Position numbers and translations under genes: made by a program. DNA of 64,000 bases from Eubacteriales bacterium (lineage in GTDB: Bacteria > Bacillota > Clostridia > Oscillospirales > CAG-272). Location: assembly GCA_045531455.1 (NCBI GenBank), contig JAZSEA010000075.1, positions 149,978 to 213,977 of the forward strand, in the 5' to 3' direction. A model generated the notes under the pieces. That model saw only the letters and a program-made list of their open reading frames with translations. It made no database searches and was not told the origin of the DNA. This document shows positions 41,881 to 55,424 of this stretch, in pieces. The first letter of the stretch is position 1. Every line of letters starts with the position of its first letter.

Positions 41881-41898
41881 ATACACAATTTAATAAAA

Positions 41899-42145
41899 GG
41901 CTTTGACGAAGACGGCAAGAAAGAATGTTTTCAGAGAGTTGGCGGTAGGTGCGAGACCAACATCAGGCTTTCGATAGCCCATCACTTCCGAGCCGGGGGA
42001 CCGAAAGTTCAACGAGTAGACTCCTCCCGTGATTACTGCGTTAAGGTATAGGGCTTGCCGGAGCCTGAAGTGCCGTCATATGACGGAATTTGAGTGGTAC
42101 CGCGAATTTGATTCGTCTCAAAGATTATTCTTTGAGACGATTTTT
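41899..42145 (+). promoter_or_regulatory. T-box riboswitch leader 1, proposed specifier AUC (Ile)
   Basis: K-turn base (GGC-UUUGAC-GAAG / CUUC-CGA-GCC), AGAGAG bulge, GGUGCGA distal loop and an AGUAGA...GCGUUA F-box. Stem III spans 42072-42085 and the T-box sequence AAUUUGAGUGGUACCGCG spans 42087-42104. The terminator hairpin at 42113-42140 is followed by UUUUU. Confidence 0.88.
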
Positions 42146-42219: not shown

Positions 42220-44487
42220 ATGCAAAAGGACACACTTCAGAATCAAAAGCTTCTTGAGATCGCCAACAGAATCAAGGATATGCGCGAAATATCCGGATTT
42301 TCCGAGGAGGAAATGGCGAATCTTACACGAATCGATCTCGACGAGTACAAGAGGTACGAGGCGGGTGCAGAAGATTTCCCCTTCTCTTTTATTCACCGTT
42401 GCTCACAGGTATTCGGAATTGAGATGAACGATCTCCTCGAGGGTCGTTCCCCGAGACTCTCCTCTTATACCATTACAAGAAAAGGTATGGGTCGTGAGAC
42501 TGCACGTGAGGACGGCATAGAGATCTGTAACCTCGCGCCGAACTTTTACGGTAAAATCGCAGAGCCTTATTGGGTAAAATATGAATATTCGGAGAAGCTC
42601 CAGAATCAGCCTATAAATCTCACCACACACAGCGGACAAGAATTCGATATAGTACTCGAGGGATCTCTGAAGATCCAGGTTGGCGAGCACATAGAAGTTC
42701 TCAATGAAGGTGACAGTATCTTCTATAACAGCTCTACCCCGCACGGTATGATCGCTGTCGGCGGACGCGACTGTCTCTTCTGCGCAGTCGTTCTCCCCGG
42801 TGAAGAAACTGCTGAGCCCGAGGTTCGCAAGAGCATCGTTTCCGCCAGACAGACAGATAATCTTCTTATCAATAAATTTATCAAGACAACAGAAAACGCT
42901 GTCGGCACACTCACCGCTATAGATTTTGTTGACGAAAACAAATATAATTTCGCTTTTGATACGGTCGATGCTATTGCTGATAAGTACCCCGACAAGCTCG
43001 CAATGATCCATCTCGACCGCGATGAAAATGAAAGAAGATTCACTTTCGCGGAGATCAAGCGCGGTTCGGCTCAGGTCGCCAACTATTTCAAGTCTCTCGG
43101 AATCAAGCGCGGCGACAGAGTAATCGTCGTTCTCAAGAGACACTATCAGTTCTGGCTTACTATGCTTGCACTCCACAAGCTCGGAGCGATCGCAATTCCC
43201 GCCACCAATCAGCTAGTGTGTCACGACTTCGAGTACAGATTCAAGGCTGCCGGCGTAAGCGCAATAGTTTGCACAACCGACGGCGAAACTGCTGCTCACG
43301 CCGATGAAGCTGCTCGCGACTTCCCCGAGATCAAGAAGATCGCCGTTGGAGTCGAGCGCAAGGGTTGGCATAACTTCAATGAAGAATATCCTCTCTTCAG
43401 CAGTAAATTCCCCAGAACCGAGGACGCCCCCTGCGGAGACGATCCTATGGTTATGTTCTTCACCTCGGGAACAACCGGATATCCCAAGATCGCAACACAT
43501 TCTTATAAATATGCGCTTGGACATTTTGTTACAGCTAAATACTGGCACAATATCTCCCCCGATGGACTTCATCTTACCATTTCCGACACCGGATGGGGCA
43601 AGGCTCTTTGGGGCAAGCTTTACGGGCAGTGGATGTGTGAGGCTGCTGTATTCGTTTACGACTTCGACAGATTCGATGCTTCAAAGATCCTTCCTATGTT
43701 CGCTAAATACAACATCACTACATTCTGCGCGCCTCCTACAATGTACAGAATGTTCATCAAGGAAGATCTCTCAAAATACGACCTTTCCTCGATCAAGCAC
43801 GCTACGATAGCCGGAGAAGCCCTCAACCCCGAGGTCTTCAAGCAATTTGAGAACGCCACGGGACTCAAGCTTATGGAAGGCTTTGGTCAGACAGAGACAA
43901 CTCTTACCGTTGCAAACCTTGTCGGTATGAATCCCAAACCCGGTTCAATGGGTAAGCCTGTTCCCCTCTACGACGTTGATATTGTGTCTCCGGAAGGCGA
44001 CAGCGTTCCGGTCGGTGAAGTTGGCGAAATCGTTGTACACACCGACAAGAAGGTTCCTTGCGGTCTCTTCCTCGGTTACTACAGAGACGAGGAACAGACA
44101 AAAGAAGCTTGGCACGATGGAGTTTACCACACGGGCGACCTCGCTTGGCGAGATGAAGACGGACATTTCTGGTACGTCGGTAGAAAGGATGACGTCATCA
44201 AATCCTCCGGATACCGTATCGGCCCGTTTGAGATCGAAAACGTCATCATGGAACTTCCATACGTTCTCGAGTGCGGTGTATCCGCAGAGCCCGATGAGAT
44301 TCGCGGACAGATCGTTAAGGCAAGCATAGTTCTTACCAAGGGAACCGAGCCAACAGAAGAACTCAAGAAGGCAATTCAGTCCTACGTCAAGAGCCACACC
44401 GCTCCTTACAAGTACCCGAGAAAGATAGTATTCAGAAACGAGCTTCCCAAAACTATCAGCGGAAAGATCCAGCGTAACAAGCTCTGA
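42220..44487 (+). CDS. Three-domain fusion: XRE-type HTH + cupin + AMP-forming (medium/short-chain type) acyl-CoA synthetase, paralog 1
   Basis: Start at MQKDTL (ATG at 42220, AAAGGA RBS). HTH in residues ~10-70, cupin (GDSIFYNSSTPHGM) and adenylate-forming motifs FFTSGTTGYPK, GFGQTETT, YHTGDLAWRDEDGHFWYVGRKDDVIKSSGYRIGPFEIE and PKTISGKIQR. Confidence 0.88.
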   Translation: MQKDTLQNQKLLEIANRIKDMREISGFSEEEMANLTRIDLDEYKRYEAGAEDFPFSFIHRCSQVFGIEMNDLLEGRSPRLSSYTITRKGMGRETAREDGIEICNLAPNFYGKIAEPYWVKYEYSEKLQNQPINLTTHSGQEFDIVLEGSLKIQVGEHIEVLNEGDSIFYNSSTPHGMIAVGGRDCLFCAVVLPGEETAEPEVRKSIVSARQTDNLLINKFIKTTENAVGTLTAIDFVDENKYNFAFDTVDAIADKYPDKLAMIHLDRDENERRFTFAEIKRGSAQVANYFKSLGIKRGDRVIVVLKRHYQFWLTMLALHKLGAIAIPATNQLVCHDFEYRFKAAGVSAIVCTTDGETAAHADEAARDFPEIKKIAVGVERKGWHNFNEEYPLFSSKFPRTEDAPCGDDPMVMFFTSGTTGYPKIATHSYKYALGHFVTAKYWHNISPDGLHLTISDTGWGKALWGKLYGQWMCEAAVFVYDFDRFDASKILPMFAKYNITTFCAPPTMYRMFIKEDLSKYDLSSIKHATIAGEALNPEVFKQFENATGLKLMEGFGQTETTLTVANLVGMNPKPGSMGKPVPLYDVDIVSPEGDSVPVGEVGEIVVHTDKKVPCGLFLGYYRDEEQTKEAWHDGVYHTGDLAWRDEDGHFWYVGRKDDVIKSSGYRIGPFEIENVIMELPYVLECGVSAEPDEIRGQIVKASIVLTKGTEPTEELKKAIQSYVKSHTAPYKYPRKIVFRNELPKTISGKIQRNKL

Positions 44488-44530
44488 TTCACTATATTTG
44501 TGAACACTTTGTGAATTATCCAAAAACTCC

Positions 44531-44559
44531 TTGACAACACAAGTAATTTGTGATATTAT
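44531..44559 (+). promoter_or_regulatory. Sigma-A-type promoter of T-box leader 2
   Basis: TTGACA (44531-44536), a 17-nt spacer, then TGaTATTAT (extended -10, 44551-44559). Confidence 0.72.
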
Positions 44560-44581
44560 TTATTTATATTTTTTAATAAAA

Positions 44582-44836
44582 GGCAATGATAGGGATGTCT
44601 CGATAATAGCCTGCTTCAGAGAGCCGTCGTTTGGTGCGAGACGGTGCAAAAAAATCGAGTTCGTCGCCCTGGAGCCGAGGAAAGGAAAGCTGATCTTTCA
44701 GTCGTAGAGTTCCTCCGTAAAGACTGCGTTAATGTCATAACAAGCGGCGCACACGCGCAATTTGAGTGGTACCGCGGGTATAGAATTCAAGTTCTGCTCG
44801 TCTCAAGATCTATTCTTGGGACGAGCCTGTTTTTTT
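44582..44836 (+). promoter_or_regulatory. T-box riboswitch leader 2, proposed specifier GUC (Val)
   Basis: K-turn base (GGC-AAUGAU-AGGG / CCCU-GGA-GCC), CUCGAU/AUCGAG helix, AGAGAG bulge, GGUGCGA distal loop and a GCGUUA F-box. The T-box sequence CAAUUUGAGUGGUACCGCG spans 44758-44776. The terminator at 44796-44826 is followed by UUUUUUU. Confidence 0.88.
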
Positions 44837-44847
44837 GGAGGTAAATC

Positions 44848-47130
44848 ATGGATAACATTTTTGAAATAGATAAACAGATAAAAGCCATGGCGGGAAGAAT
44901 TTCTGCTTTGCGTGAGATCGAAGGCTATTCTCCCGAATATATGGCTGAGCAGACAGGAGTTTCTGTTTCTGAATATCTCGACTGCGAGTCGGGAAGATCT
45001 GATTTGACGTTTGCATTTCTGTTCAGATGTGCATCCGCGCTCGGCATCGACGTTACAGAGATCATTGAAGGTACCGCTCCCCGACTAAAATCCTATACGC
45101 TCACTCGAAAAGGTAAAGGACAGAGGATCGAGCAAGCACATGGAATGACGTACTACAACATCGCACATTCCTTCGCAAACAGGACCTCGAACCCTCTGTA
45201 CGTTCATTGCGAATATTCTGCTAAAGCAGAAAATTCACCTATCGCCGTAACAACACACGAGGGTCAGGAATGCGATATCGTTATTAAGGGTCGCCTGAAG
45301 GTTCAGGTGGGCGAGCACACAGAGATACTTGAAGAAGGCGACAGCATTTACTATGATAGCTCAACCCCCCACGGTATGATCGCCATTGGCGGTGAAGATT
45401 GCTATTTCTACGCAATAGTGCTTCTTCCCGATGAAAATTCGGAAAAGGCCGCCAACGTCACTCTTGCCGCTACCCCCGCGAAGGTCAGAGACACCGAGAC
45501 ACGAGTATACAGCAAGTTTATTACTACCGAAGAAGATGAAAACGGCGCGCCCGTTTCGATCACATATAAGGGTGAAAACAGCTTCAACTTTGCTTTCGAC
45601 GTAGTTGACACTCTCGGCAGATCAAAACCTGATAAGCTGGCAATTATGCACATAGCCGAAGACGGAACCGAAAAACGCATTACATTCTCACAAGTAAAGC
45701 GTGCTTCCGCTCAATGTGCAAATTACTTTAAATCTCTCGGCATCAAGCGCGGTGACCGTGTAATGCTCGTTCTCAAGCGCAGATATCAGTTCTGGTACGC
45801 TATGATCGGACTTCACAAGCTTGGAGCCATTGCAATTCCCGCAACTAATCAGCTTAAAGAGCATGATTACGAATACAGATTCAACACCGCAGGCGTTAAG
45901 GCAATAATTTGCGTTGATGACGATTACGTTATCGAGCAAGCGGAAGCTGCCCTTGCAAAATGCCCCGATGTATCAGTAAGAATTCTGGTTGGTAAAGAGC
46001 GCGAAGGTTGGAAAAATTTCAACGAGGAATACACACTCTTCAGCAGTCACTTTGACAGAAACGACGATTCTCCCTGCGGCGACGATCCTATGCTTATGTA
46101 TTTCACATCGGGCACATCGGGATATCCCAAGATCGCGCTTCACAATTACAAATACCCCCTCGGTCATTTCCATACCGCGAAATATTGGCATTGCGTAAAT
46201 CCCGACGGTCTGCATCTTACAATATCCGACACCGGATGGGCTAAGGCAATGTGGGGTAAGCTTTACGGTGCTTGGCTCTGCGAGGCGGCAATATTCGTAT
46301 ATGACTTCGACAGATTTGATGCATCCAAGATACTTCCCCTTTTCCGCAAGTACAATATTACCACATTCTGTGCTCCTCCTACGATGTACAGAATGATAAT
46401 CAAGGAAGACCTTTCGAAATACGATCTCAGCTCTATCGAACACGCTACGATCGCGGGCGAGGCTCTCAACCCCGAAGTATTCCGTCAGTTTGAGAAGCAA
46501 ACAGGACTCAAGATCATGGAAGGCTTCGGTCAGAGTGAGACTACTCTTGTCATCGGTAACCTTGTAGGTAAAGCTCACAAGATCGGTTCGATGGGTAAAC
46601 CCGTTCCTACTTTTGACGTTGATCTTGTTGATGCAGACGGCAATTCGGTTGGCATCGGTGACCCCGGCGAGATCGTTATCAATACTAAGAACGGTGCACC
46701 TTGCGGACTCTTCTGCCAGTACTACAACGCCCCCGAAAAGACCGCAGAGGTCTGGCACGACGGTGTTTATCACACAGGCGACCTTGCTTGGCGAGACGAA
46801 GATGGCTTCTTCTGGTACGTTGGCAGAGTTGACGACGTTATCAAGTCTTCCGGATACCGCATCGGTCCGTTCGAGATCGAAAGTGTCATTATGGAACTCC
46901 CCTACGTTCTCGAATGCGGCGTTTCTGCTGCCCCCGACGAGATTCGCGGACAGATCGTCAAGGCAAGCATAGTTCTTACAAAAGACACAGAGCCAACCGA
47001 AGAGCTCAAGAAAGATATTCAGAGCTACGTTAAAAAGCGTACAGCTCCGTATAAATATCCGAGACTCGTCGAGTTCAAGACTGAATTACCCAAAACAACA
47101 AGCGGAAAGATCATCCGCAGCAAACTATAA
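44848..47130 (+). CDS. Three-domain fusion: XRE-type HTH + cupin + AMP-forming acyl-CoA synthetase, paralog 2
   Basis: Same architecture and motifs as paralog 1 (YFTSGTSGYPK, GFGQSETT, YHTGDLAWRDEDGFFWYVGRVDDVIKSSGYRIGPFEIE, PKTTSGKIIR). GGAGG RBS. By eye, high identity to paralog 1 throughout. Confidence 0.9.
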   Translation: MDNIFEIDKQIKAMAGRISALREIEGYSPEYMAEQTGVSVSEYLDCESGRSDLTFAFLFRCASALGIDVTEIIEGTAPRLKSYTLTRKGKGQRIEQAHGMTYYNIAHSFANRTSNPLYVHCEYSAKAENSPIAVTTHEGQECDIVIKGRLKVQVGEHTEILEEGDSIYYDSSTPHGMIAIGGEDCYFYAIVLLPDENSEKAANVTLAATPAKVRDTETRVYSKFITTEEDENGAPVSITYKGENSFNFAFDVVDTLGRSKPDKLAIMHIAEDGTEKRITFSQVKRASAQCANYFKSLGIKRGDRVMLVLKRRYQFWYAMIGLHKLGAIAIPATNQLKEHDYEYRFNTAGVKAIICVDDDYVIEQAEAALAKCPDVSVRILVGKEREGWKNFNEEYTLFSSHFDRNDDSPCGDDPMLMYFTSGTSGYPKIALHNYKYPLGHFHTAKYWHCVNPDGLHLTISDTGWAKAMWGKLYGAWLCEAAIFVYDFDRFDASKILPLFRKYNITTFCAPPTMYRMIIKEDLSKYDLSSIEHATIAGEALNPEVFRQFEKQTGLKIMEGFGQSETTLVIGNLVGKAHKIGSMGKPVPTFDVDLVDADGNSVGIGDPGEIVINTKNGAPCGLFCQYYNAPEKTAEVWHDGVYHTGDLAWRDEDGFFWYVGRVDDVIKSSGYRIGPFEIESVIMELPYVLECGVSAAPDEIRGQIVKASIVLTKDTEPTEELKKDIQSYVKKRTAPYKYPRLVEFKTELPKTTSGKIIRSKL

Positions 47131-47136
47131 TTTAAC

Positions 47137-47811
47137 ATGGAAAACAAACGATTAACACTATTTGCAGGTCATTACGGAAGCGGCAAGACCAACGTCGCTC
47201 TCAATTTCGCATATCGAGTGCGTTCTATGGGATACGAAACCGTTATCGCGGATATTGACACCGTTAACCCATATTTCAGAACCAAAGACAGCGAGGCAGA
47301 ATTGAAAGCAGCGGGTATCGAGCTTATCGCATCCGAATTTGCGGGCTCAAACGTTGATCTTCCCGCCCTTCCTGCCGCGATGTACGATATAATCTTTGAT
47401 TCCGATAAGCACGCTGTCATAGATATAGGCGGCGATGACCGTGGAGCTTTTGCACTAGGACGTTACACCCCGGAAATCCTGCGAGAAAACAATTACAATA
47501 TGCTGATGGTAATCAACATGTACCGTCCGCTGACGAAGACACCCGAAGATACTATTGAGATCCTTCACGAGATCGAAGCGGCGTCGGGAATCCCGTTTAC
47601 GGGACTTGTCAACAATTCAAATCTCGGACCGTTTACCGATATGGGAACTTTGACTGATTCATTTGAATATGCCAGAACTGTCTCTGAAATGTCTGGATTA
47701 CCAATCGTTGCAACTACTTGTCCCGATTCCAATAAGTTTGAAGGTACTATTGATTTCGGTCCCGAAAACGGCACCGTTATTAAACTCAAACTACAAAAGA
47801 AAATTATATAA
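47137..47811 (+). CDS. P-loop NTPase of unknown role (MinD/ParA/CooC-like superfamily resemblance)
   Basis: N-terminal Walker A FAGHYGSGKTN and a Walker-B-like VIDIGGDD. 224 aa, 6 nt after the preceding stop. Confidence 0.6.
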   Translation: MENKRLTLFAGHYGSGKTNVALNFAYRVRSMGYETVIADIDTVNPYFRTKDSEAELKAAGIELIASEFAGSNVDLPALPAAMYDIIFDSDKHAVIDIGGDDRGAFALGRYTPEILRENNYNMLMVINMYRPLTKTPEDTIEILHEIEAASGIPFTGLVNNSNLGPFTDMGTLTDSFEYARTVSEMSGLPIVATTCPDSNKFEGTIDFGPENGTVIKLKLQKKII

Positions 47812-47823
47812 AGGAGAAAAACT

Positions 47824-48030
47824 ATGGCTAAATTAACCTTTAATATTGAAAAATGCAAGGGTTGCGGACTATGCGTTTCTGCTTGTCCCAAGCACCTGCT
47901 TATTGTATCCAAAACAAAGATCAATCAGAAGGGCCACTACGTTGCGGAGATCACAGATATGAGCTCCTGCATCGGATGCGCATTTTGTGCTACAATGTGT
48001 CCCGATTGCATAATTAAGGTTGAAAAGTAA
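47824..48030 (+). CDS. 2-oxoacid:ferredoxin oxidoreductase delta subunit (2x[4Fe-4S] ferredoxin)
   Basis: CKGCGLCVSACP and CIGCAFCATMCP motifs. 68 aa, directly upstream of the alpha subunit. Confidence 0.85.
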   Translation: MAKLTFNIEKCKGCGLCVSACPKHLLIVSKTKINQKGHYVAEITDMSSCIGCAFCATMCPDCIIKVEK

Positions 48031-48043
48031 GGAGGAAACGATT

Positions 48044-49102
48044 ATGTCCGAGAAAGTATTAATGAAGGGCAACGAAGCCATCGCAGAAGCCGCTATAATG
48101 GCGGGATGCCGTCACTATTTCGGCTACCCAATCACCCCCCAGACTGAAATTGCCGCTTATATGGCCAAGAGAATGCCCAAGATAGGCGGAACCTTCCTCC
48201 AGGCTGAAAGTGAAGTTGCCGCTATCAATATGGTAATCGGTGTTGCAGCCGCAGGAAAAAGAGTAATGACCTCGAGCTCCAGCCCCGGAATCTCGCTCAA
48301 GGCAGAAGGAATATCCTATCTCGCCGGTTGCGATCTTCCCGCACTCGTTATCAACGTACAGCGCGGAGGACCCGGTCTCGGCGGAATTCAGCCTTCGCAG
48401 TCGGATTATTTCCAGGCTACAAAGGGCGGCGGTCACGGTGACTACAGAAATATCGTTCTCGCTCCCGCTTCTGTTCAGGAAATGGCTACACTCACGGTAA
48501 AAGGCTTTGATCTTGCCGATAAATACCGTATGGTAGCGATGATCCTTGCAGACGGTACAATGGGTCAGATGATGGAGCCGGTTTCTCTCGACGTTTCGGA
48601 AATTGCTCAGTATGAAAAGCCTTGGGCGGTTACCGGTACAAAACTCGAAAGAAATCACAACATCATCAACTCACTTTCTCTCGTATCCGAAGAGCTTGAA
48701 AGATTCAACATCGAAAGATATAACAAGTACAAGACCGTTGAAGAAAAAGAGGTTCTTGTAGAAGAGTACATGACCGAGGATGCAGACATCGTTCTCGTTG
48801 CTTACGGTATTGCTGCACGCGTATCAAAGAACGCTATTGCTGCTGCCCGCGCGGAAGGCATCAAGGTAGGTCTCGTTCGTCCCATTACTCTCTGGCCCTT
48901 CCCGAAGGCAACACTTGAGAAGCTTTCTCACACTGCAAAAGCATTTATCACGGTTGAGATGTCTATGGGTCAGATGATCGAGGACGTTGAGCTTGCAACG
49001 CGTTGCCGCAAGCCCGTACTCCTTTGCAACCGCTCGGGCGGTATGATCCCCACCCCCGAAGCAGTTCTTGCAAAAATCAAAGAAGCAGGAGGAATTGAAT
49101 AA
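48044..49102 (+). CDS. 2-oxoacid:ferredoxin oxidoreductase alpha subunit (VorB/KorA-type)
   Basis: LMKGNEAIAEAAI..GYPITPQTEI...QAESEVAA motifs. The ATG at 48044 has an AAGGAGGAA RBS. Confidence 0.88.
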   Translation: MSEKVLMKGNEAIAEAAIMAGCRHYFGYPITPQTEIAAYMAKRMPKIGGTFLQAESEVAAINMVIGVAAAGKRVMTSSSSPGISLKAEGISYLAGCDLPALVINVQRGGPGLGGIQPSQSDYFQATKGGGHGDYRNIVLAPASVQEMATLTVKGFDLADKYRMVAMILADGTMGQMMEPVSLDVSEIAQYEKPWAVTGTKLERNHNIINSLSLVSEELERFNIERYNKYKTVEEKEVLVEEYMTEDADIVLVAYGIAARVSKNAIAAARAEGIKVGLVRPITLWPFPKATLEKLSHTAKAFITVEMSMGQMIEDVELATRCRKPVLLCNRSGGMIPTPEAVLAKIKEAGGIE

Positions 49103-49845
49103 TGGTAGTATTTGATAAGCCGCACGCTCTGACAGATGCACCTCTGCATTACTGTCCCGGCTGTACCCACGGTATAATCCACAGGCTCGTTGCAGAAGCT
49201 ATTGACGAGTTCGGAATTGAAGGAAAAACGATCGGCATCGCTCCCGTAGGATGCTCGGTTATGGCATATAATTATTTTGCTTGCGATATGGTTCAGGCTG
49301 CTCACGGTAGAGCTCCCGCTGTTGCTACTGGTGTAAAGCGCGCAAATCCCGATAATATCGTATTTACATATCAAGGTGACGGCGACCTCGCGTCGATCGG
49401 TATGGCAGAAACAGTACACGCCGCTACAAGAGGCGAAAACATCACAATAATATTTGTTAACAATGCGATTTACGGAATGACAGGCGGTCAGATGGCTCCT
49501 ACTTCTCTTCCCGGCCAGGTCACACAGACCTCTCCCTACGGCAGAGATATTTCCACCGCAGGATATCCTATCCGTGTTTGCGAGATGCTCGCACAGCTTG
49601 ACGGTGCCGCATATCTTGAAAGAGTTGCTGTCAACAACGTAAAGAACGTCCGTAAGGCGAAAGCGGCTATCAAAAAAGCTTTCGAGAACCAGATAAACGG
49701 CGTTGGCTTCTCGCTAATCGAGGTTGTTTCCACCTGCCCCACGAACTGGGGACTTACTCCAGAGGCGGCACTTCAGTTCGTTGAAGAAAAGATGATTCCT
49801 TACTATCCGCTCGGCGTATACAAGGACAAGACAAAGGAGGCGTAA
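49102..49845 (+). CDS. 2-oxoacid:ferredoxin oxidoreductase beta subunit (TPP-binding)
   Basis: YCPGCTHG N-terminal cysteines and the GDGD TPP/Mg motif (YQGDGDLASIG). TAATG overlap with alpha. Confidence 0.88.
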   Translation: MVVFDKPHALTDAPLHYCPGCTHGIIHRLVAEAIDEFGIEGKTIGIAPVGCSVMAYNYFACDMVQAAHGRAPAVATGVKRANPDNIVFTYQGDGDLASIGMAETVHAATRGENITIIFVNNAIYGMTGGQMAPTSLPGQVTQTSPYGRDISTAGYPIRVCEMLAQLDGAAYLERVAVNNVKNVRKAKAAIKKAFENQINGVGFSLIEVVSTCPTNWGLTPEAALQFVEEKMIPYYPLGVYKDKTKEA

Positions 49846-49848
49846 ATC

Positions 49849-50385
49849 ATGAAAACAAATCAGATTTTGATTGCAGGTTTTGGCGGTCAGGGCGTCCTCT
49901 TCACAGGTAAAATGCTTGCTTATAAGGGTATGTATGAGGGTAAGGAGGTCAGTTGGCTTCCTTCCTACGGTCCTGAAATGAGAGGCGGTACCGCAAACTG
50001 CAGCGTTATCCTCAGCGATACTCCCGTCGGATCTCCCATCGTATCCAATCCCGACATACTCCTTGTAATGAATCTTCCTTCGCTCGACAAATACGAAAAC
50101 TCTGTTCCTGCAGGCGGAAAGATCTTCGTTGACTCTACCTTCATCGACAGAAAGGTAAACCGCAACGACGTAGACGTTTACTATATTCCCGCAACAAAGA
50201 TGGCTTCCGATGCGGGAGTTCCCACTCTCGCAAATATGATCCTTTTAGGAAAGGTCATTAAGGAAACCGGTGTTGTCAGTCTTGACGGAATGAGAGCTAT
50301 GTTTGAAAAAATCATCTCTGCAAAAAGACAGAATCTTATCGACGTAAATCTCCAGACTATCGAGCTCGGCTACAATTTTCAATAA
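49849..50385 (+). CDS. 2-oxoacid:ferredoxin oxidoreductase gamma subunit
   Basis: ILIAGFGGQGVLFTGK...YGPEMRGG typical of gamma subunits. Confidence 0.88.
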   Translation: MKTNQILIAGFGGQGVLFTGKMLAYKGMYEGKEVSWLPSYGPEMRGGTANCSVILSDTPVGSPIVSNPDILLVMNLPSLDKYENSVPAGGKIFVDSTFIDRKVNRNDVDVYYIPATKMASDAGVPTLANMILLGKVIKETGVVSLDGMRAMFEKIISAKRQNLIDVNLQTIELGYNFQ

Positions 50386-50406
50386 TACAGAAAGGAACTA
50401 TCAAAA

Positions 50407-51471
50407 ATGGATATCAGAATAGAAAAGATCGCAACACCCAAGCAGAAGCCCGATGAGTCCTCCTTGGGATTCGGTCAGTATTTTACAGATCATATGTTTA
50501 TCATGGATTACACACGCGCAAAGGGATGGCATGATGCAAGAATCGTTCCTTTCGGCAACCTTTCGCTACATCCCGCGTGTACAGTATTCCATTACGGTGC
50601 TGAAATTTTCGAGGGTATGAAGGCTTACAGAACCGCTGACGGCTCCATTCAGCTTTTCAGACCCGAGCAGAACTTTGCCCGTATGAATTCCTCCGCAGAA
50701 AGAATGAGACTGCCTCTTATCGACGAGGAATTTGCTCTTAAGGCACTTACGGAGCTTATCAAGATCGATGCTGATTGGGTTCCTCACGCTCCCGGAACCT
50801 CTCTCTACATCAGACCTTTCCTCTTTGGTGCAGACCCCAAGCTCGGAGTTCACTCGATCGACCGTTCCGTATTTATCATCATTCTCTCCCCTGTAGGATC
50901 TTACTACAAGGAGGGCATTAACCCCGTCAAGATCATGATCGAAACCGAGGATGTTCGCGCCGTAAGAGGCGGAACAGGTTACACCAAGTGCGGCGGTAAC
51001 TACGGTGCCTCCAACAGAGCAGGTGAAAAGGCCGAGCAGGCAGGATACTCGCAGGTCCTTTGGCTCGACGGTGTTGAGAGAAAGTATATCGAAGAAGTCG
51101 GCGCGATGAACGTAATGTTCAAGATCGGCGACGAGATCGTTACTCCTGCCCTTACCGGCTCGATCCTTCCCGGTATCACCAGAAACTCTATTCTCCAGAT
51201 TCTTCGTGATGAGGGGGCTAAGGTTTCCGAAAGACTTCTTTCCATCGACGAGCTTATCGAAGCACTTGACAACGGCACTCTCGAAGAAGGATGGGGATGC
51301 GGAACTGCCGCTGTAGTTTCCCCCATCGGTCAGCTTTTCTACAATGGCAAAACTTATACAATCAATAACGGCAAGATAGGTGCTACAACTCAGAAGCTTT
51401 ACGACACACTCACAGGAATTCAGTGGGGCAAGATTGAAGATACAAGAAATTGGGTATATCCTATCAAATAA
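50407..51471 (+). CDS. ilvE: Branched-chain-amino-acid aminotransferase (fold-type IV, long form)
   Basis: 354 aa. FGQYFTDHMF..., YGAEIFEGMKAYR (catalytic Lys region), VRAVRGGTG..K.GGNY, EEVGAMNVMF and LPGITR motifs. Confidence 0.9.
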   Translation: MDIRIEKIATPKQKPDESSLGFGQYFTDHMFIMDYTRAKGWHDARIVPFGNLSLHPACTVFHYGAEIFEGMKAYRTADGSIQLFRPEQNFARMNSSAERMRLPLIDEEFALKALTELIKIDADWVPHAPGTSLYIRPFLFGADPKLGVHSIDRSVFIIILSPVGSYYKEGINPVKIMIETEDVRAVRGGTGYTKCGGNYGASNRAGEKAEQAGYSQVLWLDGVERKYIEEVGAMNVMFKIGDEIVTPALTGSILPGITRNSILQILRDEGAKVSERLLSIDELIEALDNGTLEEGWGCGTAAVVSPIGQLFYNGKTYTINNGKIGATTQKLYDTLTGIQWGKIEDTRNWVYPIK

Positions 51472-51489
51472 ATTCCCCGGAGAATCCAA

Positions 51490-52895
51490 ATGAAAAAAAT
51501 ATTCGTCTCTGACTCAACCCTCAGAAATAATTCAGGAGTTTCCGAAACTCCTCTGTCATTCAAGCAACGAATGGAAATTGCCCGTATGCTTGACAGAATG
51601 AAGGTTGACGTAATCGAATTGGCTCCGATCGAGAACGAAAAGATCGACGTTCTTCTCGCAAGAACGATAATCTCATTTCTCAATCATGCCAAAATCGCCA
51701 TACCCGTAGGATTTGACGAAAACGCAATAGATACTGCAGCAAACGCTATAAGTGACGCATCCAAAGCACGTATTCAGATCAGAGTACCTACCTCCCCTGT
51801 ACAAATGGAGTATTTTTGCAGAAGAAAACCTCCGGTTGTACTCGAACTCATCGGAAATCTTGTTAAAAAAGCAGCGCTTACGGGTGCGGAAGTAGAATTC
51901 GTGGCAGAAGATGCTACACGTGCTGAAATGCCTTTCCTCGCAGATGCAATAAATGCTGCTATGATAAACGGCGCAACTGTAATAACTCTTTCCGACGTAG
52001 CTGCAAAAATGATCCCCGATGAATTCTCTTCTTTCGTAAACGAAGTATTCACCGCCGTTCCCGCACTCTCTAACGTCAGAACCGGCGTTGAATGTTCAAA
52101 CGAGTTGGCGCTTGCACTCGCAAACATTGCGGCTGTTCTTAACTCTGATATTTCCGAGGTTAAATGCGCCGCTTGCGCAGACCATATGCTTTCTGTAACG
52201 GATTTCACTAAATTCGTTTCTACACGCGGACTTGAGCTTAACATCGAATCTTCTATAAGAACCACAGAATGCAGAAGGATCATCTCTCAGATCGATTGGA
52301 TACTCAACTCCAAGAAAGAGATTGTTAAAACCGCAGATGACGTTTCCCCCGAAAGCGGTATCATTCTTCGTGCAGGTGATGACATCGGCACGGTTACTGC
52401 CGCTGTTGCAAAGCTTGGATACGAATTATCCGAAGAAGATGCTTCCCGCGTATACGAGGAATTCTGCCGAGTTGCAGAAAAGAAGACAGTAGAAGCTGCG
52501 GAGCTTGACGCCATTGTCGCAAGTGCCGCGCTCCAGGTAGCTCCCACCTATATCCTCAAGAGCTACGTAATCAACAGCGGAAACGTGATTAACGCAACCG
52601 CGCAGGTCACGCTTGAGAAGAATGGCGAGATCATAAACGGTGTCAGCGTAGGCGACGGTCCTATCGATGCCGCGTTCATCGCGATCGAGCAGATACTCGG
52701 ACACCACTATGAGCTTGATGATTTTCAGATCAAAGCAGTTACCGAAGGACGCCAGGCCCTCGGATCTGCTCTCGTTAAGCTTCGCGCAGGTAACAAGATC
52801 TATTCAGGAAACGGTATTTCAACCGATATTATCGGAGCCAGCATACGTGCATACATCAGTGCGCTCAACAAGATCGTATATGAGGAGAATCAGAT

Positions 52896-52899
<4 letters not shown>
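51490..52899 (+). CDS. 2-isopropylmalate-synthase-like protein with degenerate catalytic motifs and an intact LeuA regulatory (dimerisation) domain
   Basis: TIM-barrel region is alignable to LeuA, but RDGEQ reads RNNSG, DTVG reads DVAA and HxH(D) reads ECSNE. The C-terminal GDGPIDAAF...GRQALGS...GISTDIIGASIRAYISALNKI is conserved. Confidence 0.8.

Positions 52900-55424
<2,525 letters not shown>

Follow-up and report, generated by a model that had tools for sequence, protein, structure and literature searches.

T-box riboswitches (Rfam family RF00230), among them the leader of tyrS of Bacillus subtilis, the valS-type valine leaders and the leucine T-box of ilv-leu, canonically control tRNA synthetases, de novo biosynthesis genes or transporters. 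Here we describe an RNA leader (leader 2) from a 64-kb stretch of DNA of an Eubacteriales bacterium, which as a whole is called the window in the following. Leader 2 precedes the gene of a putative acyl-CoA ligase (ligase 2), and with great confidence we regard it as a class-I transcriptional T-box riboswitch specific for tRNA-Val. It shares with the canonical T-boxes the kink-turn (K-turn), a specifier loop in which the codon is followed by a purine, the AG bulge and the distal loop, Stem II and Stem IIA/B with the F-box, Stem III, the UGGN bulge, and the competition of an antiterminator with a terminator. Furthermore, its valine specifier ending in C belongs to one of the two classes of valine specifiers preferred according to TBDB. 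However, leader 2 differs from the canonical T-boxes in its specifier loop, which lacks the GAA/AGUA consensus of the S-turn, and in its target, a fusion of a helix-turn-helix (HTH) domain, a cupin and an acyl-CoA synthetase that heads an operon for a 2-oxoisovalerate:ferredoxin oxidoreductase (VOR) and the transaminase IlvE. The riboswitch mechanism is ordinary and can be found in textbooks; the target is unusual.

There are also relatives of the enzyme and of the proposed chemistry. The best match of ligase 2 in the Protein Data Bank is MacsMa from Methanosarcina acetivorans (entry 3ETC; E-value 9e-193, residues 243-758), and this closest solved relative of the ligase domain carries, as do the ligases of the window, a glycine at the position of Trp414 of the Acs protein of E. 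coli. A tryptophan in a KYW motif, which we take to be Trp259 of MacsMa, is kept in MacsMa and in the ligase. MacsMa differs in that it has no HTH domain, no cupin and no T-box, and in that it possesses a glycine at the position separating the two ligase clades described below, as does ligase 1, the upstream paralog in the window, whereas ligase 2 has Ala465 there. MbcS from Staphylococcus aureus activates exogenous 2-methylbutyrate and isobutyrate to the CoA thioesters and isovalerate only poorly (PMC10026030). In contrast to the ligases of the window, MbcS feeds fatty acid synthesis, serves as one enzyme for both acids and lacks a fused regulator domain. Allison and co-workers reportedly demonstrated by labelling of rumen bacteria that branched short-chain acids are reductively carboxylated to branched-chain amino acids, which is physiology without genes or regulation. 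The chemistry proposed for the window is the same, leading from isobutyrate via the acyl-CoA and a ferredoxin-dependent 2-oxoacid synthase to valine, and the gut habitat is shared as well. The present proposal differs in naming genes and an amino-acid-specific RNA switch, on the basis of sequence alone. In the literature searched, there was no paper in which a T-box specifier was connected with an acyl-CoA ligase and none on T-box control of the conversion of isobutyrate to valine, which is not a proof of novelty.

The identity of leader 2 as a T-box is evident from its match to RF00230, which was obtained with cmscan at positions 44577-44808 of the plus strand and covers the complete model (1-219 of 219) with 96.3 bits and an E-value of 6.7e-20, the curated gathering score being 93 bits. 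All Stem I pairings that had been drawn in a first-pass annotation of the leader are present in the sequence. The stem is closed by GGC 44582-84 and GCC 44674-76, followed by the K-turn with GA 44588-89 opposite GA 44672-73, the base helix AGGG 44591-94 / CCCU 44667-70 and the upper helix CUCGAU 44599-604 / AUCGAG 44654-59. Between the two helices, the 3' strand of the specifier loop consists of the seven nucleotides UUC-GUC-G (44660-66). The same annotation had likened this strand to GAA-GGC-A of glyQ leaders, a comparison that holds for the length of the loop and fails for the GAA of the S-turn consensus, which is UUC here. The AG bulge AGAGA (44618-22) aligns to the conserved AGAGA of the Rfam model and the distal loop GUUUGGUGCGA (44629-39) to the conserved UUGGUGaaA, and the family alignment contains invariant columns in these parts, which is evidence at the level of sequence. 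Further downstream, the T-box sequence AAUUUGAGUGGUACCGCG occupies positions 44759-76. In the antiterminator, helix A1 (UUGAG 44762-66 / CUCAA 44802-06) and helix A2 (GCGGG 44774-78 / CUCGU 44797-801) flank the seven-nucleotide bulge UGGUACC (44767-73). UGGU was found in the bulge of all 132 family leaders having a Stem I, and its presence at 44767-70 agrees with the earlier expectation of a bulge that fits a tRNA with A73. This discriminator base is established for tRNA-Val, tRNA-Ile and tRNA-Leu; the only tRNA gene in the 64-kb window is one for tRNA-Ser(CGA). Altogether, every T-box feature looked for was found in leader 2 except for the non-universal S-turn consensus. The coordinates of the elements are listed in Table 1.

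Table 1. Features of leader 2 and its surroundings (positions refer to the window)
Feature	Position	Strand	Basis
T-box leader 1, specifier AUC 41981-83	41894-42123	+	RF00230, 88.8 bits (below gathering score of 93)
Ligase 1, putative pocket residue Gly	42220-44487	+	open reading frame; NCBIfam, alignment
Predicted sigma-70-type promoter of leader 2: TTGACA, 17 nt, TATTAT, TG extended -10	44531-44559	+	consensus scan only
Stem I	44582-44676	+	sequence; own Stem I covariance model R1 (73.2 bits); covariation; constrained fold
Specifier GUC (valine), then purine G44666, then CCCU strand	44663-44665	+	Rfam model, family column, TBDB rule
F-box CGUUA, Stem IIA/B region	44727-44731	+	aligned to conserved CGUUA of Rfam consensus
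Stem III, GCGC-ACAC-GCGC	44747-44758	+	Rfam model alignment, folding
T-box sequence and antiterminator	44760-44806	+	Rfam model alignment, sequence
Intrinsic terminator: 13-bp stem 44796-44826 (7 G-C), then CUG, U7 44830-36	44796-44836	+	terminator scan, folding
Ligase 2 (P0001, 760 amino acids): XRE-type HTH, cupin, Macs-type AMP-forming acyl-CoA synthetase; putative pocket residue A465	ribosome-binding site 44837-41, unit 44837-47130	+	domain searches, 3ETC match, alignment
Rest of transcription unit	47137-55424	+	NCBIfam and domain searches

Within the 15 kb scanned, no terminator-like site is stronger than that of leader 2, which also dominates the fold of 44745-44840 (minimum free energy -38.3 kcal/mol, z-score -4.34, none of 200 shuffles as good). 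The 5' arm of the terminator shares positions 44796-44806 with the 3' strands of the antiterminator helices A1 and A2, and therefore the two structures are mutually exclusive. Since the ribosome-binding site GGAGG and the start codon ATG (44848) lie 3' of the terminator, leader 2 is a T-box of the transcription attenuation type and not a translational one. The predicted promoter of leader 2 matches the consensus at 11 of 12 positions and additionally carries the TG motif.

The first-pass annotation had read the specifier as GUC, a valine codon, and this reading finds support from three independent sides, namely the Rfam alignment, the TBDB rule and the comparative codon data. In the Rfam alignment, GUC occupies model positions 91-93 and G44666 position 94, directly followed by the CCCU strand of the base helix. 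This covariance-model alignment, which had been named beforehand as a possible refutation of GUC, thus returned the GUC register. Leader 1 carries AUC-A at the same positions of RF00230. The TBDB rule places the specifier at the second to fourth nucleotide of the specifier bulge as seen from its 3' end (PMC7778990), and the agreement of the GUC register with this rule supports a valine specifier. Moreover, valine T-boxes prefer specifiers with A or C at the 3' end (PMC7778990), a group to which GUA and GUC belong. The helix CUCGAU/AUCGAG above the specifier loop is reproduced by a constrained minimum free energy fold of leader 2, and it is retained by compensatory changes (CUCUG/CAGAG) in the related locus L001. 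A shift of the register by lengthening of the base helix was considered and rejected, since an A-G mismatch occupies the next inner position, in the window as well as in the consensus of the family.

For the comparative analysis, the downstream protein was used as query, which resulted in 594 confirmed matches in species genomes, and the best 80 loci were analysed. These loci are metagenome-assembled genomes of Clostridia from the ruminant and human gut, belonging to the Oscillospiraceae, Acutalibacteraceae and Christensenellaceae. A heuristic specifier parser based on regular expressions mis-parsed or missed 26 out of 137 leaders and was replaced by a covariance model of Stem I (R1), built from 111 leaders and run on the window and the 80 loci. 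This model found 134 Stem I elements, and their specifier column reads GUA (74), AUC (43), CUC (12) or GUC (5). All 134 triplets are codons of branched-chain amino acids. Among the 79 Val-type leaders, the first two specifier bases G and U are invariant (79/79 each), the third base is A in 74 and C in five cases, and a purine follows the specifier without exception (G in 64, A in 15 leaders). The positions 5' of the specifier vary, those from -6 to -4 freely. In the Ile-type leaders, the base after AUC is C in 11 out of 43 cases (e.g. L009:2989, L011, L036, L048, L054, L067, L073, L076, L080).

The position of the specifier relative to the base helix is backed by covariation across the 134 elements. 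Double changes occur at all four base pairs (variants are, for example, GAAG/CUUC, GGAG/CUCC, GGGG/CCCC, AGGG/CCCU and GGAA/UUCC), and 99.2% of the cells are paired. If the 3' partners are slid by one to three columns, pairing over the whole structure drops to 28-48%, and none of 500 shuffles reached the observed covariation score or the observed share of paired cells. The seed leaders of R1 were picked by a rule requiring the base helix, and the search of whole loci recovered the same register in 23 elements outside the seed. RNAalifold on a MAFFT alignment recovered only the base and the distal helices, the variable middle helix being misaligned, and therefore this helix was checked by constrained folding of single sequences. 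Rfam at its gathering threshold detected only some of the leaders in ten related loci, with several others just under the cutoff. One Val-type leader (L043:5689-5807) carries an insertion of about 18 nucleotides in the distal loop (AAACUCUACGGGGUUUUA), which is unique in the set.

The specifier is strictly associated with the ligase paralog behind it. Ligases 1 and 2 each comprise about 760 amino acids and are 64% identical. Each ligase reading frame with a complete upstream region (81 sources) is preceded by a T-box; the upstream, Ile-type paralog always follows AUC (43/43), and the paralog of the ligase 2 type always follows GUA (70) or GUC (5), that is in 75 out of 75 cases. When 118 full-length ligases are placed on a tree, a single change suffices for the Ile/Val label (support 91), compared to a mean of 35 after shuffling of the labels and none of 500 shuffles as low. 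This strict co-segregation supports the proposal of the first-pass annotation that the two paralogs are each coupled to a different amino acid. GUC was derived twice from GUA on the ligase tree, once in the group of the window, L001 and L002 and once in L064/L071, and such a synonymous switch on two branches is what would be expected of a valine specifier.

The two paralogs are not equally diverged over their length. Between tandem partners, the catalytic domains share 68-80% identity and the N-terminal domains, which comprise HTH and cupin (44848-45500 for ligase 2 and 42220-42870 for ligase 1), share 44-54%. The tree of the N-terminal domains splits the two clades with 100% support; that of the ligase domains needs two label changes. 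Eleven columns are conserved within the clades but different between them, ten in the HTH/cupin part (residues 11, 21, 59, 60, 73, 97, 100, 102, 112 and 117 of P0001) and one in the catalytic domain. Judging from these alignments, the putative sensor would be the most specialised part of the ligase paralogs.

The single clade-separating column of the catalytic domain is of special interest with regard to substrate preference. It holds alanine in 74 of 75 Val-type ligases and glycine in all 43 Ile-type ligases. In P0001, the alanine is A465 in the motif SDTGW-A-K, and BLASTP aligns this column with V310 of E. coli Acs, a residue of the substrate-binding pocket (PMC6298115). Its archaeal counterpart Ile312 belongs to a group of four pocket residues on which acyl specificity depends (PMC3477478). 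Trp414 of Acs aligns with a glycine (FGQSETT) in both paralogs. In Macs-type enzymes, glycine replaces this tryptophan of the acetate pocket (PMC10455477, PMC6122825), and by this rule both ligases, which carry the Pfam domains PF00501 and PF13193 (AMP-binding, AMP-binding_C), are of the Macs type. MacsMa, which prefers 2-methylbutyrate (PMC10455477), has a glycine at the clade-separating position (ADSGWGK), like the Ile-type ligases. The direction of the exchange would fit, since the paralog assigned to isoleucine and a C5 acid has the smaller residue and the paralog assigned to valine and a C4 acid the larger one. Of the NCBIfam families, MbcS scores best with both ligases, but the 438.4 bits for P0001 and the 445.8 bits for P0002 fall far short of the equivalog cutoff of 850 (NF047394), and the ligases are therefore related to MbcS and not MbcS equivalogs. 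A specialisation of ligase 2 for isobutyrate therefore appears plausible, and the indirect support from these comparisons tips the balance somewhat in its favour.

Taken together, the locus is very probably an operon gated by a tRNA-Val T-box, and most likely one for branched-acid salvage. Transcription would start at the own promoter of leader 2, and Stem I would offer the codon GUC, stacked on G44666, to the anticodon of tRNA-Val(GAC), with the AG bulge and the distal loop docking on the elbow of the tRNA. The UGGU of the bulge would pair with the free 3'-ACCA end of the tRNA, including the discriminator A73, so that uncharged tRNA-Val would stabilise the antiterminator. Without uncharged tRNA-Val, the terminator with its 13-bp stem and U7 would form and transcription would end before the ribosome-binding site. 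Read-through would yield ligase 2, a P-loop NTPase, a four-subunit 2-oxoisovalerate:ferredoxin oxidoreductase and IlvE, and here also a LeuA-like gene product and ligase 3. Exogenous isobutyrate could then be converted to isobutyryl-CoA, by reductive carboxylation to 2-oxoisovalerate and by transamination to valine. Gene content and regulatory logic make this isobutyrate-to-valine pathway the most likely one. A switch that opens on uncharged tRNA-Val should serve a pathway that makes valine, and its position in front of an acid-activating enzyme, an oxidoreductase and IlvE argues for the anabolic direction, in which valine starvation would turn on valine salvage.

Several observations weigh against parts of this interpretation, and they also feed the alternatives to it. 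The Rfam score of leader 2 exceeds the gathering score by only 3 bits, and Stem II contains two non-standard pairs in the Rfam model alignment. The specifier loop reads UUC on its 3' side and AUGU on its 5' side instead of the S-turn consensus GAA/AGUA, and the corresponding positions read AGKG and GUUU in the relatives. However, the S-turn is common but not universal among T-boxes, and therefore its absence does not decide on T-box membership. If the specifier loop is left unconstrained, the minimum free energy fold pairs AUG 44595-97 with CGU 44662-64, which would hide two of the three specifier bases and leave only C44665 and G44666 free. This pairing is found in the window and in L001 and is absent in L002; it is probably incidental, and it could also set the threshold of the switch. 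A specifier in another frame or position, that is CGU (Arg), UCG (Ser) or, at the site usually occupied by GAA, UUC (Phe), would mean that another tRNA is sensed. Such a reading could draw on this fold, on the strand UUCGUCG, which contains all three triplets, and on the occasional -1 and +1 frames mentioned for TBDB (PMC7778990). However, in the 79 Val-type leaders the -1 frame yields UGU, CGU, GGU or AGU (Cys, Arg, Gly or Ser) and the +1 frame UAG, UAA, UCG or UCA, mostly stop codons, neither frame giving one amino acid throughout, and the positions from -6 to -4 vary freely. Only the 0 frame is kept as GUN, with the synonymous change between A and C arising twice on the tree, the Rfam model gives the GUC register, and the downstream genes are those of branched-chain amino acids. 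The registers CGU, UCG and UUC were rejected on these comparative grounds, and a tRNA other than tRNA-Val as the ligand is very improbable. The marginal Rfam score, the two Stem II pairs and the partly paired specifier would also suit a decaying or constitutively terminating relic, with the operon driven by read-through from leader 1 or by control through the HTH-cupin part; such read-through would meet no terminator on the way from the stop codon of ligase 1 to promoter 2 (44487-44560). Nevertheless, we give hardly any credence to a relic, since no conserved T-box element is damaged, a near-consensus promoter with extended -10 belongs to the leader itself, and this type of leader with its invariant G-U is kept before 75 of 75 orthologues, including stand-alone genes for which the leader is the only control element. 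For the tRNA-Val switch, there remains the difficulty that transcripts starting at leader 1 under isoleucine starvation still meet the Val-gated terminator before the VOR and ilvE genes, which the model leaves unexplained. How oxidoreductase and transaminase are supplied to isoleucine salvage when valine is plentiful is likewise not explained by the model. Short contigs of two gut metatranscriptome runs are identical to positions 46722-46869 (ligase 2) and 49888-50199 (VOR gamma) of the window. These contigs are mixed and reveal nothing about 3' ends of transcripts at the terminator (44836), and as DNA carry-over is possible, the matches are weak evidence for expression of the operon in vivo.

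The substrate specialisation of the ligases has to be weighed separately from the T-box. It is possible, although we consider it rather unlikely, that the valine T-box is real and the ligases are unspecialised, so that both activate any short branched acid and the duplication merely provides separate isoleucine and valine inputs together with separate HTH-cupin sensors. The much higher conservation of the catalytic domains compared to the N-terminal domains, the location of ten of the eleven clade-separating columns in the HTH/cupin part and the clean split of the N-terminal tree as compared to the ligase-domain tree would all be in line with this, as would the acceptance of both 2-methylbutyrate and isobutyrate by MbcS and the about 20 genomes with only a Val-type unit at the locus. 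The catalytic domains of the paralogs differ consistently at one residue only, and the equivalence of this residue with Acs V310 is that of a sequence alignment. In addition, MacsMa reportedly uses an alternate acyl pocket. Unspecialised ligases are also suggested by L033, whose tandem ligase domains are 99.4% identical, both with glycine, behind an AUC and a GUA leader. In this locus (L033:3374-8289) there are three differences in 520 amino acids of the catalytic domain, and the N-terminal domains are 45% identical. However, in L033 the enzyme half may have undergone gene conversion, or the assembly of this metagenome-derived genome may have collapsed. Moreover, the split between alanine and glycine at the position aligned with V310 is nearly perfect, it is, as expected, the presumed ligase for the larger acid that carries the smaller residue, glycine is also present in the 2-methylbutyrate enzyme MacsMa, and the occurrence of a third, unrelated ligase behind a leucine (CUC) T-box in relatives fits to one ligase per acid.

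Beyond this, the locus and its relatives may point to a hitherto undescribed salvage system with three channels in Clostridia of gut and rumen, in which the T-box specifier would be a natural label of enzyme specificity. T-boxes for isoleucine (AUC), valine (GUA/GUC) and leucine (CUC) would each gate an own branched-acid ligase, for 2-methylbutyrate, isobutyrate and isovalerate, respectively, and the three channels would converge on a single ferredoxin-dependent 2-oxoacid synthase and a single transaminase. The Gly/Ala residue at the position of Acs V310 would tune the preference between C5 and C4 acids, and the paralog-specific HTH-cupin part would represent a second sensory layer. We would give this extended scheme even chances. 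If it is true, it would explain in terms of genes and regulation why rumen bacteria require branched-chain volatile fatty acids, as has long been known.

The specifier provides an amino-acid-specific label that can be read from the sequence and is attached to an otherwise unassignable acyl-CoA ligase. A relative of ligase 2 is encoded in no fewer than 594 species genomes of Clostridia from gut and rumen. The isoleucine and leucine counterparts form a natural comparison set, and Ala465 versus glycine is nominated as a candidate selector between C4 and C5 acids. The genetic basis of the dependence of ruminal and gut anaerobes on branched-chain volatile fatty acids thereby becomes directly testable.

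The genes 3' of ligase 2 encode, in this order, the P-loop NTPase, a small ferredoxin-like (VOR delta-like) protein, VorB, a thiamine pyrophosphate (TPP) beta subunit, a gamma subunit, IlvE, a LeuA-like protein and a fusion of a TIM barrel with ligase 3. VorB and IlvE score 544.7 bits (NCBIfam cutoff 399) and 477.3 bits (cutoff 307), respectively. The terminator scan revealed no strong terminator on the plus strand inside the unit up to 55424. A third T-box with a leucine specifier (CUC) is present in 12 relatives, among them L012, L013, L027, L038, L048, L056, L061, L066 and L077, mostly between ilvE and the LeuA-like gene. There is no Stem I match between these two genes in the window (51471-51490) and in L001, its closest relative, where the gap is only 18 nucleotides, and therefore the leucine module rides on the Val-gated transcript there.

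The order of ligase 2, NTPase, VOR and IlvE genes recurs in relatives. The valine T-box and the HTH-cupin-ligase occur alone, without VOR or IlvE, in about 20 loci whose downstream sequence extends over 4-6 kb (including L021, L022, L030, L035, L042, L043, L049, L052, L058, L063, L070 and L075). The conserved unit is therefore the leader together with the ligase and not the whole operon. In L042, the gene after the stand-alone ligase lies on the opposite strand. The sequence of the window itself was found in sheep-gut and faecal metagenomes.

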